NCBI GenBank assembly: GCA_030167145.1
Contig: CP126532.1
Coordinates: 690,001-722,000, forward strand
Length of the DNA stretch: 32,000 nucleotides
Direction of reading: 5' to 3'
DNA from: Ktedonobacterales bacterium
Lineage (GTDB): Bacteria > Chloroflexota > Ktedonobacteria > Ktedonobacterales > JADMIN01
A program made the translations under genes and the position numbers. This document shows, one piece after another, positions 9,511 to 15,831 of this stretch. Numbering within the stretch: the stretch's first letter is position 1; each line of letters starts with the position of its first letter. The notes below the pieces were generated by a model. It made no database searches, was not told the DNA's origin, and worked only from the letters and a program-made list of their open reading frames with translations.

Positions 9511-10644
9511 TCAATATCCGCTGCCAATCAGTTCTTCGGGTAGCGACGGCATCGCTTCTGGCAGCGGGGCGCTCGACGTACCACACTCTCTCTTTTCCCC
9601 ATCCCTACCAGGGAGGGGGTCGGGGGGTAGGTCAGTGATGGCGGCGCGCAGGCGACGGGTGAGTTGAGCAATCGCGCGCAAGGTCGACGGGTCTATCGTC
9701 TGGTCAGCGTCGGAGAGCGCGGCGTCCGGGTGCGGACTCATCTCGATCAGCAGGCCATCCGCCCCGGCGGCAATCGCGGCGGCGCTCATCGGCAGAATCA
9801 GCTCGCGGCGGCCCGTGCCGTGGCTGGGGTCCACCAGCACCGGCAGATGCGTCAGCGTGCGCAGCAGTGGCACGGCGGCCAGGTCCAGCAGGTTGCGCGT
9901 TTGTGGATCGAAGCCACGAATGCCGCGTTCGCAGAGGATGATATGCGGATTGCCCTCGGCGAGCAGATATTCGGCGGCGAGCAGCCACTCATCAATCGTC
10001 GCGGCGAACCCGCGCTTGAGCAGCACAGGACGGCCAGAGCGTCCGGCGGCGCGCAGCAGCGGGAAATTCTGCATATTGCGGCTACCGATCTGCAACACAT
10101 CGGCGAATTCGGCCACATCGGCGACAAGGGAAGGCTCCATCACCTCGGTGACGACCGGCAGCCCAGCGGCTGCGCCCGCCTGTGCCAGCAGCTCCAGCCC
10201 GCGCAACCCCAATCCCTGGAAGGCATATGGCGACGTGCGCGGCTTGAACGCGCCACCGCGCAGCAGGTGCGCGCCCGCGTCGCGTGCGGCCAGCGCGGCT
10301 TCGCGCATCTGGTCTTCGCCCTCCACAGAGCAGGGACCAGCGATGATCACCGGCTCGCCACCTCCGATGACCACGCTCCCCACCCGTACACGCGTAGCAT
10401 CGGGATGTACGGCGCGACTAGCCAGCGCGTAAGGCGTGGTAATGGGGATGAGCCGTGCCACCTGGGGCAGCGCGGTGATGCGGGCGATGATCGCGTCGGT
10501 ATAGGTCAGGCCGGGGAGATAGAGCAGCCACGCGCCGCTCTCTTGCGGCAGGCTGATGGGATCATGCGCTCCCAATTCAGCGAGCAGATGCGCCACCTCG
10601 GCGCGTTGCTCAGGCGCGGCGTCTTCGCGAAGCAAAACGACCAT
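9511..10644 (-). CDS. aroF: 3-deoxy-7-phosphoheptulonate (DAHP) synthase, class I-beta, with N-terminal ferredoxin-like regulatory domain
   Basis: Core motifs are present: GPCSVE, LRGGAFKPRTSPYAFQGLG, KRGF and LVDPSH. The N-terminus MVVLLRED parallels my recollection of the Thermotoga-type enzyme (MIVVLKPG). The start at 10644 has GAGAGGG about 6 nt upstream, so I prefer it over the track start at 10701. The C-terminus carries a Pro-rich extension of about 40 aa. Confidence 0.9.
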   Translation of the reverse strand: MVVLLREDAAPEQRAEVAHLLAELGAHDPISLPQESGAWLLYLPGLTYTDAIIARITALPQVARLIPITTPYALASRAVHPDATRVRVGSVVIGGGEPVIIAGPCSVEGEDQMREAALAARDAGAHLLRGGAFKPRTSPYAFQGLGLRGLELLAQAGAAAGLPVVTEVMEPSLVADVAEFADVLQIGSRNMQNFPLLRAAGRSGRPVLLKRGFAATIDEWLLAAEYLLAEGNPHIILCERGIRGFDPQTRNLLDLAAVPLLRTLTHLPVLVDPSHGTGRRELILPMSAAAIAAGADGLLIEMSPHPDAALSDADQTIDPSTLRAIAQLTRRLRAAITDLPPDPLPGRDGEKRECGTSSAPLPEAMPSLPEELIGSGY

Positions 10645-10844
10645 ACCGACCCTCTCATTTCCAATCGCGGCGCGCATCACGGTGTACGCGCCCGCCAGCA
10701 ACCACTACCCATCGCGGCTCGTGCCCCGGACATTGATGGCCGGGAGAACAGAAGCTCCGCGTTGCGGTACGGCGTCGTGGGAGGGAGCTGAACCCACGAC
10801 CGCTGGCGAATTGGGCGGGACCACATGAGATGGCCGTGGGCAAC

Positions 10845-10873
10845 AAAAAAGCAGAGGAATACATTTCCTCTGC
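10845..10873 (-). terminator. Intrinsic terminator inside the aroF leader (candidate attenuator terminator)
   Basis: Read on the minus strand: GCAGAGGAA (10873-10865), loop ATGTA, TTCCTCTGC (10859-10851), then TTTTTT (10850-10845). The stem is 9 perfect bp and is preceded by AA that can extend it onto the U-tract. Confidence 0.75.
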
Positions 10874-10927
10874 TTGCCCCCCGACCTGCCGTGGCTCCGC
10901 ACTTCTGCCAGAACAAACGGCCCACCG

Positions 10928-11011
10928 TCATGCCGGGGGGCAACGATACCACCAATACTCTGGCTGGCTGGTCTGTATGCGGTTGTCTAACAGACTGTTG
11001 AGTTTGTTCAT
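10928..11011 (-). CDS. Candidate 27-aa leader peptide MNKLNSLLDNRIQTSQPEYWWYRCPPA with a Tyr-Trp-Trp-Tyr run
   Basis: ATG at 11011 begins 9 nt after the -10 hexamer, so the mRNA would be nearly leaderless. Codons 19-22 are TAT TGG TGG TAT (10957-10946) and the stop TGA is at 10930-10928. The ORF is too short for the ORF track; I translated it by hand from the reverse complement. Confidence 0.5.
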   Translation of the reverse strand: MNKLNSLLDNRIQTSQPEYWWYRCPPA

Positions 11012-11020
11012 GGCACTTAG

Positions 11021-11049
11021 AGTATAGGGCGCGCACGTCGCTCTGTCAA
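11021..11049 (-). promoter_or_regulatory. Near-consensus sigma70-type promoter (TTGACA-17-TATACT)
   Basis: On the minus strand: TTGACA at 11049-11044, an exactly 17-nt spacer, and TATACT at 11026-11021. It starts 19 nt after the stop of the 1587-aa gene. Confidence 0.7.
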
Positions 11050-11067
11050 GGCTGGCGGAATGCACGT

Positions 11068-14000
11068 TCAGCCGGTGACTTCGTAGATCGTGACGCCCTG
11101 GTTGTTATACACCGTCCGCAGGATGCCCTGCTGTTCGAGCGTCTGGAACTTGGCGATGGCGTCGGGCGACATCGGCACACAGGTATCGCCCTCCTTTACG
11201 TAGCAGGTGCGTTCCAAATCGCCGAGATACACGTACTTTACGCCGTACTGCGCCAGGAAGCTCCGCGCTGCCTCTGGGTCCGGCGTGCTCCAGAACGACT
11301 CCACATCGGCCTGGCGCACATAGACCTCGTTTTGGTAGCGCTGCTCTAGCTCGTGCCCTTCGCTCAGCACGGCGGGCAGCCCAGTATAAACCGAGACGCG
11401 CCCCTGCCAGTTATAGACGCCGCTACTGGCCTCCACGATCACCGGCGCGCCCGCGATGTGGTCGTTCATCCAGGTGATGGCCGCGTAGTCGCCGGGATAC
11501 CAGCCGCGCATGTAGGCCATGCCATCCAGCGAGAGGCCCTGCGGCTGGAGTCCGCCGGGAGGTGGCTGCACCTCCGCCCAGATGAGCGGATCCTGAAGTC
11601 GAGCCTGTGTCCCTTCGACGAGAAAGACCGATGAGCCGAAGATCAGCAGCAGCAAAGCCCCCAGCCACGCCGCCCGCGCCAGCCTGACCGCCCCGCCAAC
11701 GGGCCGCCACCCCACATATGCCTCGTCGGGTGAGGTATGCGCCGTCGCTCGCATGTACGCCCGCGCCGCCAGCAGCCGCCGCACGATGTAGGCGAAGGCC
11801 AGCGCGCCCCCCAGCGCGAAGAGAGTCCACACCTGATAGTAGAACTTGAAGACCGTATTCATGCGCTCCCAGTCGGAGTTATCCAGCCAGTCGCGAACGT
11901 AGATGACCTCGACGCCAAACGCGATGCCCAGGCCCAGCAGCAGTAGCATATACGTGAAGAGCCGCGCGGGCGCGTGGCGCGGATTGAGCGCCAGGTACAG
12001 CCCCAGCGCGATCAACACCAGCAGCAGCGCCTTGACGCTCGCCAGATAGGCGATGAACACCACCGCGCCGTAGATCAGCAGCAGCGTCCACGAGCGCGCA
12101 TCCCAGACGTTCGCCTCCATGCCGTCCTCGCCGTTCGGGTCGCGGCTGACGCCAAGGCGGTCGCGCAGTTCCAGGAAGAAGAAGCTGACGATCAGGAAGA
12201 GCCAGAGGCCGAAGACGGTGAAGAAGAGAATGGGCGCGGTGGGCGTGGTGACGGGTCCAGTGCCGGAGACGAAGTTCTGGAAATTGCTGTGGAACGGCAG
12301 ATACAGCGCGTAGGTCGCCGCCAGCGTCAGCCCCAGCGCCATGCCATAGTTGCGCAGCGTGGGCCAGTTGAAGATGCGCGCCCCAATCGCGCGCCACGTG
12401 CCCTTCGCGCCGACGGGCAGCAGCCAGATCGCCAGCGCCACGGCGAAGAGCAGCGCATAGGTGGGCACATCCCACGTGTTCGTACACCACGCCGCGCCTA
12501 GCGCCAGCGCCACCGCCGCCAGTGTCGGGGTGATGCCACGCCAGTCCACCGCCCCTACCGCCTGTGTTCCCTCCCTTGAAGGCCGAGAGCGTGGAGACTG
12601 AGAGCCGCCCGCCACCAGCGAGGCGCAGCACGCGATCAGCAGCACCACAATGGGCAAATCAATCAGATGCGCGTGCAGGTCGGCGTAGAGGAAGCTCCAG
12701 TACGGGAACTCGTTGATGGTGAAGGGAATCACGCGGCTGCTCTGCCAGTAGTCGAAGGGCGGCGCGGGAAAATGCGCCAGCACCGCGCGCCACTGGCCGA
12801 TGAGCTGCCCCAGGCCGTCGAGGTTGCCCACCACCATCAAGCCGAGGCCACCCGCCAGCCCGGCCCACCAGCGTTTCGTAAGCCCCGCGACGACAGAGAA
12901 CGCGCCAGTGAAGGTGACGGCGAAGAGCAGCGGGATAGCGAGATTGAAGGCCGTGGTGGGCACGATGCCAGTGAGCTTGATGAGCACGGCGATGAGATAC
13001 TGACCGTAGTAGTAGTAATTGATGTAGCCGCCTGCGAACCACGGGTCCAGCGGCGGCATATAGCGGCTGCGCAGAATCGCGTTCAGATAGGCCAACTCCA
13101 TCGGCTTCTCGCCGCCGCGCCAAATATGCCAGAGGTCCGGGTCGAGCGCGCGAATCCAGGCGAAGAACAGGAAGGCTACCAGGAACGCGCCCTCGCAGAT
13201 CACCAGCAGCCGCCAGCGTTCGCGTACAAAGGCCCATATCTGCTCGCGCCGCCACCAGGAGAGCGCGCCCCCCGCCACCGCCAGCAGCGCGAACACGCCA
13301 ATCACCGCCCAGCGGTCGAACGGCAGGATGTGCAGACTGGACGGCAGCCAGACGAGCCAGGCCAGCAGTAGCAGCCCCAGCAGCTTTGCCAATCCCCAGC
13401 CACGGTCGCGCAGGCCGGGGAAGACGAAATAGGCGAATGGAAAGCTGATGAGGCCAAGCAGTTCGACGACCAGCAGCCACCAGATAAGTGGTAGCTGATT
13501 GGCGATGCTGTTGGCGGGGAACTGCACGCCCAGCGGTTGCGATTGCGCGTCGGCGGCGATGTCTTGCGGCGAGAGCAGGAGCGACTTCTCCGCGCCGGAG
13601 CGGCTGTACGCCGGGGGAAGATTCAGGCCGCTGGTGAGCAACGTCAGCAGTTGCTCCTGGCTCAGCCCCGCGCCCGTTTTGGTAAAGATCCACACCGGCG
13701 GATGATCGTAGACCGAATAGCTCTCGTCCGCGCCGCTATCATTGAGCGTGAAGCCGAGGAAGTGCGGCGACGTCTGGAACTGCGCCGCCAGCGTGAAGCC
13801 GAGCTTGCCCGCGAAAAGCAACTGATAGTAGCGCGTCGTCATCGGGTAGCGGTCGGGCAGCTTCGGTATCGAGCGCAGTAACCGCTGGCTGCTGATAATT
13901 ACTACATCGGCGCTGGCAAGCTGGCTGGCAAGCTGCTGCGCCTTGGCGGGGGTATCGTCGTCATAGAGATTCAGGCCAATATTGCCGTATTCGCCAGGGT

Positions 14001-15831
14001 TAATCATCTGCCCGGACGCGGTATAGCCGATACCTAGCTTATCAGTGCGTGCGGGTGGCACATAGATCGGCAACGGATCGTCCCAGACTTCGCTGGTCAG
14101 CGTCGCACCAGGGCGGATGTGGTCGTAGATCCATTCGGATGCCTGGACGCGGGTATTTGGTGCGCTATACACATTCACCAGCGCCAGCGTGAGGACCAGC
14201 GATGACGCCAGCACCAGCGCCACCAGCGCGACGCTGAGTGTGCGCCACCAGCCCGCGCCCCACTGTCGCGAGAGCCGCGCCACCAGCGGGATGGCGAAAG
14301 GGTCGCATAGCCACGCACGGACGGCGGCGGTACGGCTGGCTGGCACATCTGTTGCGTCCGCGGTTGTGCGCTCGCGAATACGGCGCGTGCCCCACGCGGC
14401 GAAGGCCACCAGCGCGGCGGCCCCGCAGATGGCGAGCGGCGCGAAGACCGGCAGCATATAGCGCGTGAACTTCATGTAGGCGCTGCCGATGACGGCGAAG
14501 TAGCCCACCAGCCAGACGACAACTATCGTCCAGTCGTTATTCAGCGTGCGCCAGAGCCGCGACGCCGCCCACGTGAAGCCCGCCAGGCCAAGCAGGCCCA
14601 GCGGCAGGCCCATGTCATAGAGCAGCATCTGCTGAATCTGATAGACGAAGGGCGTCTCATTGGTGAACTGGCGCACGTAGGGATAGTCGAGTTGCCCGCG
14701 CGAGAGCATCGTTTGCTCGTTCACCTGCGCGCGGAAGGTCTGCCAGTCTATCAGCACATACGGGCTGGTGATGAGGAAGGCCAGAATCGCGGCGGAGACG
14801 ATGCCCAGCAGCGCCAGCAGCGCCTCGTCGAAGCCACGCCGTCGCAGGCGCAGCGCCAGCGCCACCAGCACCGGCGCGAGCAGCGGCAGCGCGCTCACCT
14901 TCACCGCCAGCGCCAGCCCTGCGCCCACGCCGATGAAGAGGCCCGCGCGCCATGCCTGCCAGATCTCGCGGCGCGGCTGCTCGTTCTCGTCGCCGTCCTC
15001 CGAAGCAGTCGTATGGCGTGGACGCGGCCCCTGCGCCAGCCGTACACAGCCGAGCAGCGTCAGCAGCACGAAAAAGAGCAGCAGCGTATCCACGGCGTAG
15101 AAGTGCGACACCTGGACCTCGAACGCGGTGGTCGCGACGAACGCCGCCGCCAGCAGCCCGGCCCAGCGTCCGGCGAGCCGCCGCGCGATCAGCCCACTGA
15201 GCAGCACCGAGCCAGCGTCGAAGAGCGCGGAGAGAAACCGCCCGACCAGCGTGAAATGGTTGAAGTCGTCCCACGTGCCGCCATCTGATGGCGCGAAGTG
15301 GCCGCCGGTGGCATGGGTCAGCCAGGCCAGCCCATGGGCCACGGCGGCGAGCAGGTATTGCGGCAGCGTGCCGTAGGCGAAGAAATGCGGGTTCAGCGGC
15401 GAGGCCGGCGAGAAGAACCACCCTGGCCCAGTATAAGCCGGATCGCAGCCGGCAGCGCGCGGTGTGCCGGGGAAGGAGAGGCAGATGGACTTGAAGACGA
15501 TTTCCCGCTCGTCGGGGTGGAGATGATTGTTGGCGTCCCAGTTGATACCATACAGCCGTGGCAGCAGCGCCAGCAGCGTAATTCCCAGCAGCGCCCACAG
15601 CGTCCAGTCTTGCCGTGCGGCCCAGCGTCGCAGTGCGCCAAGCGCCACACCTAGCAGCACGCCAGGCTGCCAGCGGATGGCAGCGGCGCGAGATGACATT
15701 TGCTCAGGCACGTCGGTCTGTGTGGTGGGGAGTGACACTGGTGGCGTGAGCGCGGCAGCGGCGCTGGACGTGCGTCCGCCAGACGCCCCTACGCGGACGC
15801 GGCGCCCGCGTCGCATTCGCTTGTCTCGCAC
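11068..15831 (-). CDS. Giant (1587 aa) polytopic membrane protein with two tandem GT-C-like / DUF2298 (Chlor_Arch_YYY-type) modules
   Basis: GTG start at 15831 has GGAGGA 6 nt upstream. There are dozens of hydrophobic segments. A YYYYG motif (INYYYYGQYLIAVL; 13003-13017) lies in the second half and a degenerate copy (HFFAYGTLPQYLLAAV; 15370-15384) in the first. The N-terminal HPDERE loop resembles GT39/ArnT-type first-loop acidic motifs. The C-terminal soluble domain (GLSLDGMAYM...VYTGLPAVLSEGHELEQRY...YVYLGDLER) matches my recollection of DUF2298 proteins. Confidence 0.85.
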   Translation of the reverse strand: MRDKRMRRGRRVRVGASGGRTSSAAAALTPPVSLPTTQTDVPEQMSSRAAAIRWQPGVLLGVALGALRRWAARQDWTLWALLGITLLALLPRLYGINWDANNHLHPDEREIVFKSICLSFPGTPRAAGCDPAYTGPGWFFSPASPLNPHFFAYGTLPQYLLAAVAHGLAWLTHATGGHFAPSDGGTWDDFNHFTLVGRFLSALFDAGSVLLSGLIARRLAGRWAGLLAAAFVATTAFEVQVSHFYAVDTLLLFFVLLTLLGCVRLAQGPRPRHTTASEDGDENEQPRREIWQAWRAGLFIGVGAGLALAVKVSALPLLAPVLVALALRLRRRGFDEALLALLGIVSAAILAFLITSPYVLIDWQTFRAQVNEQTMLSRGQLDYPYVRQFTNETPFVYQIQQMLLYDMGLPLGLLGLAGFTWAASRLWRTLNNDWTIVVVWLVGYFAVIGSAYMKFTRYMLPVFAPLAICGAAALVAFAAWGTRRIRERTTADATDVPASRTAAVRAWLCDPFAIPLVARLSRQWGAGWWRTLSVALVALVLASSLVLTLALVNVYSAPNTRVQASEWIYDHIRPGATLTSEVWDDPLPIYVPPARTDKLGIGYTASGQMINPGEYGNIGLNLYDDDTPAKAQQLASQLASADVVIISSQRLLRSIPKLPDRYPMTTRYYQLLFAGKLGFTLAAQFQTSPHFLGFTLNDSGADESYSVYDHPPVWIFTKTGAGLSQEQLLTLLTSGLNLPPAYSRSGAEKSLLLSPQDIAADAQSQPLGVQFPANSIANQLPLIWWLLVVELLGLISFPFAYFVFPGLRDRGWGLAKLLGLLLLAWLVWLPSSLHILPFDRWAVIGVFALLAVAGGALSWWRREQIWAFVRERWRLLVICEGAFLVAFLFFAWIRALDPDLWHIWRGGEKPMELAYLNAILRSRYMPPLDPWFAGGYINYYYYGQYLIAVLIKLTGIVPTTAFNLAIPLLFAVTFTGAFSVVAGLTKRWWAGLAGGLGLMVVGNLDGLGQLIGQWRAVLAHFPAPPFDYWQSSRVIPFTINEFPYWSFLYADLHAHLIDLPIVVLLIACCASLVAGGSQSPRSRPSREGTQAVGAVDWRGITPTLAAVALALGAAWCTNTWDVPTYALLFAVALAIWLLPVGAKGTWRAIGARIFNWPTLRNYGMALGLTLAATYALYLPFHSNFQNFVSGTGPVTTPTAPILFFTVFGLWLFLIVSFFFLELRDRLGVSRDPNGEDGMEANVWDARSWTLLLIYGAVVFIAYLASVKALLLVLIALGLYLALNPRHAPARLFTYMLLLLGLGIAFGVEVIYVRDWLDNSDWERMNTVFKFYYQVWTLFALGGALAFAYIVRRLLAARAYMRATAHTSPDEAYVGWRPVGGAVRLARAAWLGALLLLIFGSSVFLVEGTQARLQDPLIWAEVQPPPGGLQPQGLSLDGMAYMRGWYPGDYAAITWMNDHIAGAPVIVEASSGVYNWQGRVSVYTGLPAVLSEGHELEQRYQNEVYVRQADVESFWSTPDPEAARSFLAQYGVKYVYLGDLERTCYVKEGDTCVPMSPDAIAKFQTLEQQGILRTVYNNQGVTIYEVTG

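Follow-up and report, generated by a model that had tools for sequence, protein, structure and literature searches.

Does the gene for the entry step of aromatic amino acid synthesis in a Ktedonobacterales bacterium answer to the ribosome that translates a short peptide in front of it? The question is raised by the region upstream of a DAHP synthase gene (aroF) in a stretch of 32,000 nucleotides, referred to below as the window, for which an earlier note had proposed, from the letters alone, attenuation of the trpL/pheL type. The identification of the gene is borne out by domain and structure matches: residues 90-333 of the product match PF00793 (DAHP_synth_1, E = 5.6e-77), and the PDB search returns the class I-beta enzymes 1vs1 (6e-97) and 1rzm (1.5e-89). 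The product has 89 extra residues N-terminal to the Pfam catalytic match and its alignment with the Thermotoga maritima DAHP synthase begins at residue 54; an N-terminal allosteric domain is plausible. The window as a whole has a single match, a Logan metagenome contig, and the best related locus is 68% identical.

The minus-strand architecture described in the earlier note, with a near-consensus promoter, a 27-codon ORF containing TAT TGG TGG TAT and an intrinsic terminator, was found again in every part (Table 1). The promoter hexamers, separated by 17 nt, match 11 of 12 consensus positions, and the promoter scan gives 2 promoter-like sites in 3 kb against 0.6 expected. The leader ATG lies 9 nt past the end of the -10 box in the window and 6-13 nt past it in 32 of 43 homologues, thus the leader transcript is either leaderless or close to it. 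The terminator (T), with the stem GCAGAGGAA/TTCCTCTGC followed by T6, lies 54 nt past the leader stop; its stem is lengthened by the scan to 11 bp (10875-10849), and the median energy of the core hairpin in the family, -12.3 kcal/mol, is that of a good hairpin on its own. Its 5' arm, GCAGAGG, is nearly invariant. The proposed absence of a convincing promoter between the terminator and the aroF start agrees with the scan of the window, which detected no promoter-like site in this interval. In many relatives the corresponding gap, only 30-60 nt, is too short to accommodate a promoter. Transcription of aroF probably depends on read-through of the terminator, and we count this in favour of attenuation.

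Table 1. Features of the aroF leader region; positions refer to the window.
Feature	Position	Strand	Sequence	Remarks
-35 hexamer	11044-11049	-	TTGACA	TTGAC(A/G/T) with a 17-18 nt spacer kept in 40+ homologous leaders
-10 hexamer	11021-11026	-	TATACT	promoter scan
Helix A, 5' strand	11002-11014	-	GCCAUGAACAAAC	transcript 5' end and AUG region; pairs with 10918-10907
Leader ORF	10928-11011	-	MNKLNSLLDNRIQTSQPEYWWYRCPPA	27 codons plus stop; ATG 11011, stop TGA 10930-10928; homologous ORFs in 60/60 covariance-model matches
Palindromic box	10989-10999	-	AACAGTCTGTT	inside leader ORF; nucleotide-level conservation in Ktedonobacterales, coding or 5' UTR alike
Regulatory codons (Tyr-Trp-Trp-Tyr)	10946-10957	-	TAT TGG TGG TAT	frame-specific aromatic excess across the family
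Helix B, 5' strand	10921-10944	-	core UUGCCCCCCGGC	core 10943-10932 = Cys-Pro-Pro-Ala codons; runs on through stop UGA
Apical region C of B stem-loop	10896-10920	-		includes helix A 3' strand GUUUGUUCUGGC, 10918-10907
Helix B, 3' strand	10873-10895	-	core GUCGGGGGGCAA	core 10885-10874; adjoins terminator
Intrinsic terminator T	10845-10873	-	GCAGAGGAA, loop AUGUA, UUCCUCUGC, U6	stem 10873-10851, T6 10850-10845; core hairpin -13.3 kcal/mol; some compensatory changes
X1	10833-10841	-	GCCCACGGC	directly 3' of U-tract; potential partner of X2 or, spanning the terminator, of helix B 3' strand
Alternative hairpin in aroF 5' UTR	10774-10800	-		X2, anti-SD-like segment and X3
X2	10800-10792	-	GUCGUGGGU	part of alternative hairpin in aroF 5' UTR
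Anti-SD-like segment	10787-10780	-	CUCCCUCC	part of alternative hairpin in aroF 5' UTR
X3	10781-10774	-	CCCACGAC	part of alternative hairpin in aroF 5' UTR
aroF Shine-Dalgarno	10650-10656	-	GAGAGGG	CUGGAARUGAGGG motif kept in relatives
aroF, class I-beta DAHP synthase	9511-10644	-		377 aa; PF00793 and PDB matches

The element is not confined to this locus. With a covariance model composed of helix B (described below) and the terminator, it was located directly upstream of the DAHP synthase gene in 59 of the 80 Chloroflexota genomes, each locus giving one match (E-values 1e-27 to 4e-3). The same model recognises it in about 55 of 80 metagenome contigs, a set collected by the terminator pattern alone. 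Among the carriers are the cultivable Nitrolancea hollandica (aroF locus L041), Ktedonospora formicarum (L046) and a Thermogemmatispora genome (L034). Over about 115 loci the element is strictly linked to aroF and has the same orientation, the one departure being a metagenome copy that sits before a prephenate dehydrogenase gene (tyrA) instead. No known family explains the region: the Rfam search of the window gave nothing at the gathering score, the Trp_leader, Phe_leader, His_leader and T-box models had no match in the window, and positions 10550-11150 returned at E <= 10 only chance-level sRNA matches with E > 2. A tRNA fragment in the GGGTTCAGCTCCC stretch was considered and excluded by a negative tRNA scan. 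Our literature search for Chloroflexota attenuators found no paper, and to our knowledge very little has been learnt so far of how genes are regulated in this phylum.

If the leader peptide is a sensor of aromatic supply, related aroF genes should be preceded by similar peptides. Indeed, Chloroflexota aroF upstream regions possess a short ORF with consecutive W/Y/F codons that is followed by a terminator: a short ORF with a run of at least three aromatic codons occurs in 50 of 73 such regions (68%), compared with 3% of other windows and of shuffled sequence. The homologous leader ORFs among the 60 covariance-model matches contain 2-8 W/Y/F codons in one frame (at least three in 56 matches, two in the others), and the mean density per 10 codons is 4.25 in the ORF frame versus 0.8 and 1.2 in the other frames. 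Tyr, Phe and Trp interchange among the aromatic positions, and in-frame stops are found in 4 of the 60 matches, all four among those that the model aligned out of register. Conservation and codon bias are thereby both demonstrated, and it is mainly because of its conservation that the leader goes beyond a chance observation. The remainder of the peptide is variable: the ORF spans from 11 to about 49 codons, the short Chloroflexota forms bear F-Y-F-like runs, and in Ktedonobacterales and the short forms the peptide keeps the ending (S/C/T)-P-P-A or x-P-A before a UGA stop. The leader peptides have no match in NCBIfam or Pfam.

The RNA structure around these codons is conserved too. The 12-bp GC-rich helix seen by eye in the earlier note, which joins the last codons of the ORF to the segment abutting the terminator, is present in the minimum-free-energy fold (z = -4.4 versus shuffles) and forms the core of a longer helix B with about 18 expected pairs. 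The complementarity suggested for the start-codon region is confirmed and proves longer than was then thought: helix A, which contains a single bulge, joins GCCAUGAACAAAC to GUUUGUUCUGGC and crosses helix B, as had been noted. Its partner strands vary among Ktedonobacterales relatives yet remain complementary. The 3' strand of B is G-rich and is separated from the terminator core by a linker of 0-7 nt that is 87% purine across the family. For the study of covariation, 60 sequences were aligned by fitting them to the model structure. In this alignment standard pairs make up 96.5% of the cells of helices B and T versus 80.6% after shuffling, and 18 of the 20 pairs of B and T show compensatory changes; slid controls have 35-56% standard pairs. 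The covariation of B and T is therefore evident.

Folding under ribosome masks identified this GC-rich helix as the element that depends on the position of the ribosome. In the folding model, the median number of expected pairs in helix B is 16.7 without a ribosome and is still 16.7 when the first aromatic codon is occupied; it is 15.6 for a ribosome at the middle one, 8.2 for a ribosome at the last one, and 0 when the ribosome stands at the stop. In the Thermomicrobiales forms the nearest-neighbour model allows B to form anew behind the ribosome that stands at the stop codon, and excluding this would rely on a steric argument.

The switch itself proved to be different from the expected one. 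The equilibrium probability of the terminator was high under all ribosome masks, and we dropped this measure because in the E. coli trp control the real antiterminator was invisible to it. It was replaced by folding of truncated RNA, which does recover the control: the pairing probability of the trp T 5' arm is 0.07 without a ribosome, 0.37-0.73 with a stalled one and 0.07 with the ribosome at the stop. Applied to 44 leaders, the same test detected no pairing of the T 5' arm that is specific to the stalled state, and no conserved upstream segment complementary to this arm was found across the family. The earlier caveat that no strong antiterminator competes with the terminator stem thus stands, and the trpL/pheL logic holds for the sensing of aromatic supply but not for the switch.

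Several candidate partners of the T 5' arm were tried and rejected. The 5' box could contribute 5-6 bp only and is absent from two groups of leaders (g2 and g3); for the helix A 3' strand the complementarity holds in the window alone; runs of Phe and Tyr codons would be inside the stalled ribosome; and cross-pairing with the helix B 5' strand is limited to 4-5 bp. An internal ribosome-binding site in the G-rich 3' strand of B, which would block T, lacks a start codon at workable spacing, and the T 5' arm would not take part in a G-quadruplex formed by this strand. Reinitiation through the terminator was also considered, as an AUGA stop/start overlap is present and the frame is open in the window; the start varies among Ktedonobacterales, with A, G, U or C at the overlap position, and reinitiation would give regulation of the wrong sign.

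Taken as a whole, we consider it probable that the element is a ribosome-mediated transcription attenuator, which sets DAHP synthase expression by the supply of charged Tyr-, Trp- and Phe-tRNA. The near-consensus promoter would produce a leaderless RNA, on which the ribosome would begin at the 5' AUG and arrive at the four aromatic codons; the Cys-Pro-Pro-Ala and stop codons just 3' of this run would serve as one strand of the long helix B, and the G-rich partner strand would end right at the foot of T. When aromatic amino acids are plentiful, the ribosome would have moved onto the B strand and would stand at the stop codon during the synthesis of T by RNA polymerase: B could not form, 18-49 nt of RNA would be free before T, and transcription would end. 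When aromatic tRNA is scarce, the ribosome would be held in the aromatic run 5' of B, so that B would form and more read-through into aroF would follow. Both the sign of this regulation and the coupling of B to T are what we infer.

The GC core of T would not be sequestered by B. In the account that we prefer, helix B would loop out about 60 nt and thereby hold the foot of T close to the front edge of the stalled ribosome (median 6 nt), whose proximity would keep the last base pairs of T from closing inside the polymerase; without a stalled ribosome, B and T would coexist and transcription would end. Attenuation of this kind, in which a bridging helix takes the place of an antiterminator hairpin and polymerase-bound T is kept open by a ribosome stalled about 6 nt away, is put forward tentatively, as a possibility that we ourselves hold to be rather doubtful, and we know of no direct precedent for such steric coupling. 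The geometry, computed with a ribosome footprint assumed to reach from -15 to +12 of the A site, is clear: the tether from the stalled ribosome to the T core through the helix has a median of 6 nt and does not exceed 10 nt for 85% of 205 aromatic codons, whereas the distance along the RNA has a median of 70 nt (range 47-101 nt). In E. coli, terminators near a stop codon are repressed, and their activity returns only at distances above about 30 bp (PMC4824070). A second contribution could come from B withholding a purine strand that would otherwise extend T into the U-tract. When the B 5' strand is masked, more U-tract bases are paired in 25 of the 44 leaders and fewer in 2; the effect is weak in the window (from 1.2 to 1.8 bases) and absent in leaders of the L006 type, and such competition was therefore rejected as the sole mechanism.

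One would argue that the element is after all a classical trp-type attenuator, whose antiterminator over the T 5' arm was missed by nearest-neighbour folding because it is confined to some lineages, weak or part of a pseudoknot. Its regulatory codons, stop, stem-loops and terminator do have a trpL-like layout, helix A crosses helix B while the folding tools used ignore pseudoknots, and the equilibrium test was blind even to the E. coli trp leader. However, the truncated-RNA test that is not blind to it was negative in the 44 leaders, and the near invariance of GCAGAGG without a conserved upstream complement also speaks against this reading, which we regard as unlikely. It is extremely improbable, and the least probable of the explanations discussed here, that the leader works through RNA only (as a riboswitch, a T-box-like or a protein-binding element) and that the ORF is incidental. 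The high nucleotide-level conservation of helix B, of the T stem and of the 5' box, the last of which is kept in coding and non-coding contexts alike, would suit such an element, and the GGUGGGCC segment after the stop presumably has a faint likeness to a T-box motif; yet there were no relevant Rfam matches even at E = 10, the aromatic enrichment with interchanging W/Y/F is confined to a single frame in which stops are rare, and the start codon coincides with the predicted transcription start in most leaders.

The conserved end of the peptide might instead point to an arrest-peptide sensor of the TnaC type: an aromatic-rich chain ending in Pro-Pro-Ala would stall the ribosome at UGA, perhaps upon free aromatic amino acids, and the stall, not tRNA charging, would control termination. 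UGA followed by C, as here, is a weak termination context. Yet the Pro-Pro-Ala and stop codons are also the helix B 5' strand and covary with its partner, two variants (L022 and L024) keep helix B and the B/T layout without Pro-Pro-Ala, the ORF of the Thermomicrobiales forms goes on for 9-13 codons past it, and neither sequence nor length of the peptide is conserved outside the aromatic run; such a sensor is quite improbable. A very improbable reading is that of an independent small transcript, an sRNA or small-protein gene that always ends at T, with aroF supplied by constitutive leak-through or by a promoter that escaped recognition. A strong promoter, a 170-nt RNA and a strong terminator do resemble a self-contained unit, weak Rfam similarities to sRNAs exist (only at E > 2), and attenuator RNAs can reportedly act in trans in Sinorhizobium (PMC6614838). 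Against it stand the strict same-orientation linkage to aroF, the frequent T-to-aroF gaps too short for a promoter and a codon bias specific to the end products of the pathway. The alternative left standing in the earlier note, an independent small gene, is likewise unlikely, since conservation is limited to the aromatic run and the helix-forming codons and the ORF length is so variable.

If the proposed attenuator is true, it would regulate the entry step of aromatic amino acid synthesis across the phylum, and in at least one lineage tyrA as well. One leader peptide would then be able to integrate the supply of Tyr, Trp and Phe, and leaderless mRNAs would be able to act as attenuator leaders. 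A ribosome-sensitive helix that adjoins the terminator instead of overlapping it is a mechanistic puzzle, the solution of which could reveal helix-relayed steric antitermination; should the bridging account be true, it would be a new route from ribosome position to RNA polymerase, used throughout the phylum. The covariance model is in addition a practical means to annotate such leaders in genomes and metagenomes.

The closest tested analogue is aroR-aroF of Corynebacterium glutamicum, compared here by description only. Both systems have a leader peptide with consecutive aromatic residues before a DAHP synthase gene; however, C. glutamicum belongs to another phylum, and its aroF encodes a class I-alpha enzyme, whereas the enzyme studied here is of class I-beta. 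In the summaries given in PMC11802643 and PMC4046766, which cite Neshat et al. (2014), the C. glutamicum aroR leader (Phe-Tyr-Phe) attenuates aroF and Phe limitation leads to more read-through. Our preferred model also resembles the E. coli pyrBI attenuator and stop-proximal terminators (PMC4824070), in that the ribosome would come too near the foot of the terminator hairpin. There it is linearly adjacent, whereas here it would lie 47-101 nt off and be brought near by helix B alone. Transcriptional OFF riboswitches likewise have a stable helix immediately 5' of the terminator with one regulated strand, but in them the freed 3' strand pairs with the terminator 5' arm, while here the freed strand is purine-rich like that arm and cannot pair with it; moreover, the sensor here would be a translating ribosome and not a ligand.

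With the E. coli trpL, pheL and hisL leaders the Chloroflexota element shares a short ORF with tandem codons for the end products, an intrinsic terminator that precedes the first structural gene and, as judged here from the folding model, a helix whose formation is set by the position of the lead ribosome. It has neither sequence nor Rfam similarity to them. Contrastingly, no hairpin competes here for the T 5' arm, helix B adjoins T without overlap, the leader mRNA is mostly leaderless, and all three aromatic amino acids appear, from the codons, to be sensed together. Most likely, the supply of aromatic amino acids is read here via the speed of the ribosome, as in the textbook trp example, through a wiring that differs from it.

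All the elements that the earlier note had listed on the minus strand were recovered at their positions when the sequence was re-read (table). The promoter, described there as near-consensus, agrees with the consensus at 11 of 12 positions, and the scan of 3 kb gave only one other promoter-like site; the 27-codon leader ORF with its Tyr-Trp-Trp-Tyr run and the intrinsic terminator with its T6 tract were likewise confirmed, and from the terminator to ATG 10644 of aroF the scan, in agreement with the note, gave no promoter-like site. Compared with shuffles, the fold of RNA 11014-10840 has z = -4.4; it contains the GC-rich helix of the earlier note (helix B), which directly abuts the terminator. 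The segment AACAGTCTGTT (10989-10999, minus strand) forms a perfect palindrome (5+1+5). Ktedonobacterales leaders conserve the homologous box, (A)CTCAGCAGTCTGTT, at the nucleotide level, both where the leader ORF contains it and where it precedes the ORF in the 5' UTR; it may act as an operator (about +15 to +25) or as an RNA element.

Features of the aroF leader region (window positions)
Feature	Position	Strand	Basis or remark
-35 TTGACA	11049-11044	(-)	sequence read and promoter scan
-10 TATACT	11026-11021	(-)	17-nt spacer after -35; sequence read and promoter scan
Leader ORF MNKLNSLLDNRIQTSQPEYWWYRCPPA	ATG 11011, stop 10930-10928	(-)	translation
Tyr-Trp-Trp-Tyr codons	10957-10946	(-)	sequence read
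Helix A, 5' strand	11014-11002	(-)	5' end and AUG region
Helix A, 3' strand	10918-10907	(-)	apical part of the stem-loop
Terminator stem	10873-10851	(-)	terminator scan
Terminator T6	10850-10845	(-)	terminator scan
X1 GCCCACGGC	10841-10833	(-)	just past the U-tract; pairs with X2, with covariation
X2 GUCGUGGGU	10800-10792	(-)	pairs with X1, or with X3 instead
X3 CCCACGAC	10781-10774	(-)	alternative partner of X2

The downstream gene encodes a class I-beta DAHP synthase (PF00793, E = 5.6e-77 in Pfam; PDB 1vs1 and 1rzm, E = 1e-97 to 1e-89). A mechanical ORF listing begins it at TTG 10701 (396 aa); the conserved SD GAGAGGG (10656-10650) and the alignment of relatives lead us to favour ATG 10644 (377 aa). 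The product of the upstream gene (11068-15831, minus strand) is a membrane protein of 1587 aa that has PMT (glycosyltransferase) and DUF2298 domains. The stop of this gene lies 18 nt from the leader -35 box with no terminator between, and transcripts of the gene would enter the leader and stop at the same terminator.

No known family accounts for the leader, as the earlier note had proposed to check: Rfam gave no match at gathering score over the whole window and, at E <= 10, nothing but sRNA similarities at chance level, a tRNA scan found no tRNA, and the leader peptide matched nothing in NCBIfam or Pfam. Its relatives were found through aroF. The protein, queried against 185,579 species genomes, gave 80 Chloroflexota loci, the closest being Ktedonobacterales MAGs at 66-68% identity; about 19 of the loci can be aligned over the leader DNA. 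Upstream short ORFs with runs of at least three aromatic residues, which the earlier note proposed to look for in relatives, occur at 50 of 73 usable loci against a background of 3% (antisense strand, other windows, shuffles), and an aromatic run followed by P-[AVTG] at 43 of 73 against 0.5%. A covariance model of helix B and the terminator only, built from 16 Ktedonobacterales leaders, matched the window once, immediately before aroF, and did likewise at 59 of the 80 loci. Additionally, a metagenome scan by terminator sequence only yielded 80 readable loci, about 55 of them with the same element and DAHP synthase downstream. At one metagenome locus (L146, 5724-5845; contig WNFG01015253.1) a leader of the type ...AFAWYFYFSPPA, with helix B and terminator, precedes prephenate dehydrogenase (PF02153 + PF20463) instead of DAHP synthase; therefore the element serves more than one aromatic-pathway gene.

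All members share a layout that begins with a TTGAC(A)-17/18-TAnnnT promoter. The leader ATG lies 6-13 nt past the -10 box in 32 of 43 leaders, and the leader RNA is therefore leaderless or nearly so. The ORF carries 2-8 W/Y/F codons and 0-2 further codons before CCN-CCG-GCN (Pro-Pro-Ala or x-Pro-Ala), which is followed by a stem-loop, a G-rich strand and the terminator. Three layouts were distinguished by the position of the ORF end: in the Ktedonobacterales, window included, and in short forms of 11-12 codons the ORF stops directly after Ala, and in Thermomicrobiales forms 9-13 codons later, within the stem-loop. Over 60 model matches the leader frame averages 4.25 aromatic codons per 10 and the other frames 0.8 and 1.2; 56 matches have at least three and the other four have two (Y 115, F 79, W 66 in total). 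This frame specificity fits what selection on codons, not an RNA motif, would predict. Together with the conserved matches it supports the attenuator interpretation of the earlier note, and by these sequence comparisons the leader is judged a real, conserved regulatory element.

A start codon overlaps the leader stop (GCAUGAC). In the short forms it opens a mini-ORF of at most five sense codons past the start, often M-T-x-P-G-stop. This mini-ORF ends no further than the loop of the stem-loop in 11 of 11 loci (L054, L069, L050, L051, L044, L032, L037, L070, L080, L067, L039); at locus L052 the two ORFs are fused. The corresponding frame of the window runs on without a stop for 84 codons and across the terminator (10931-10677, minus strand), which may be chance at this GC content.

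In helix B the G-rich strand pairs with the Pro-Pro-Ala codons and with a directly adjoining stop codon, at duplex energies of -21 to -46 kcal/mol in 44 of 44 leaders examined. The helix covaries within the Ktedonobacterales (U-A/C-G/U-G, G-C/A-U, C-G/U-A). In a 60-sequence alignment, which is fitted to the model and favours structure, 96.5% of cells are paired against 80.6% in shuffles, 18 of 20 pairs show compensatory changes, and slid controls give 35-56%. Two variant leaders, GYFYFWRSSLMSAGFA (L022, 1434-1580) and GWWWWRSSLASARLA (L024, 2833-2980), end in ...WRSSLxSA and have no Pro-Pro-Ala, but a helix is retained at this position, as is the terminator layout; the helix of the second has 2 nt (CG) in common with the base of the terminator stem. 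Because B covaries and these variants retain it, Pro-Pro-Ala is read as constrained by the RNA and not as a signal of the peptide.

In the masked equilibrium folding that the earlier note had suggested, the terminator probability is high in every ribosome state, but the E. coli trp leader behaves alike, thus the equilibrium test is uninformative. We also folded the RNA as present before the terminator 3' arm is made. By this kinetic surrogate the 5' arm of the trp terminator is paired at 0.07 without ribosome, 0.37-0.73 when the ribosome is stalled and 0.07 when it is at the stop, so the trp antiterminator is recovered; none of 44 family leaders showed stall-specific sequestration of the terminator 5' arm. 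The 2:3 versus 3:4 feature of classical attenuators was therefore not found, in agreement with the earlier remark that no strong antiterminator competing with the terminator stem could be found by eye. The element that tracks ribosome position in the folding model is helix B: its median expected pairs are 16.7 without ribosome, 16.7, 15.6 and 8.2 with the first, middle and last aromatic codon in the A site, and 0 with the ribosome at the stop codon. For Thermomicrobiales forms the model allows B to re-form around the ribosome, which we consider sterically improbable. Since starvation should raise DAHP synthase, the B-formed state must be the read-through state.

How B would weaken the terminator can be considered in terms of distance. 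The linker from the B 3' strand to the terminator is 0-7 nt long and 87% purine across the family, and a ribosome stalled in the aromatic run has its front edge where B starts. Through the formed B, the first base of the terminator core is reached from that edge over a median of 6 nt (IQR 4-9), and over at most 10 nt for 85% of 205 aromatic codons; measured linearly, the median is 70 nt. When the ribosome is at the stop codon, 18-49 nt of the RNA stay free. A terminator that lies near a stop codon in E. coli is almost fully repressed, and its efficiency is 0.12-0.8 at 17-18 bp and maximal only past about 30 bp (PMC4824070). The short tether and these E. coli data together imply that B would hold the terminator within the repressed range of the ribosome only on stalling, as a steric bridge. 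B would also withhold a purine strand that otherwise extends the terminator into the U-tract: masking the B 5' strand raises the mean of paired U-tract bases from 2.3 to 3.6 (up in 25 of 44 leaders, down in 2), an effect that one subgroup lacks and that is slight in the window. We favour the bridge, to which the purine-strand effect would contribute, at a fairly low probability for the bridge as the main mechanism. The coupling step is worth testing. Without translation, the bridge predicts termination, and B acting alone predicts read-through.

The Ktedonobacterales, window included, have further layers. Helix A crosses B, as the earlier note had pointed out, and its partner sequences vary among relatives with complementarity kept; it probably blocks re-initiation. 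An alternative partner of X1 is the B 3' strand on the other side of the terminator, and this pairing covaries too; an anti-SD-like CUCCCUCC adjoins X3. The three X segments, which are missing from relatives with short 5' UTRs, may, together with the anti-SD-like segment, form a relay by which the state of B reaches the 5' UTR and the translation of aroF.

No account of a Chloroflexota attenuator turned up in the literature that could be searched, whose coverage is incomplete. The trpL/pheL-type logic proposed earlier holds for sensing, which resembles that of trpL, pheL and hisL, but not for the overlapping antiterminator of classical attenuators; as this was tested and not found in the 44 leaders, we do not file the element as a classical member. 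The closest system in sensing logic is aroR-aroF of C. glutamicum, where the aroR leader has Phe-Tyr-Phe and Phe limitation raises aroF transcription (PMC11802643, PMC4046766). A short-form leader, MATSFWYRSPA, occurs in an Actinobacteria-labelled MAG (loci L080, recorded as Actinobacteria bacterium AC_69, and L091). This points either to a wrong assignment of the MAG or to an element that reaches beyond Chloroflexota, which bears on a possible kinship with the C. glutamicum aroR.
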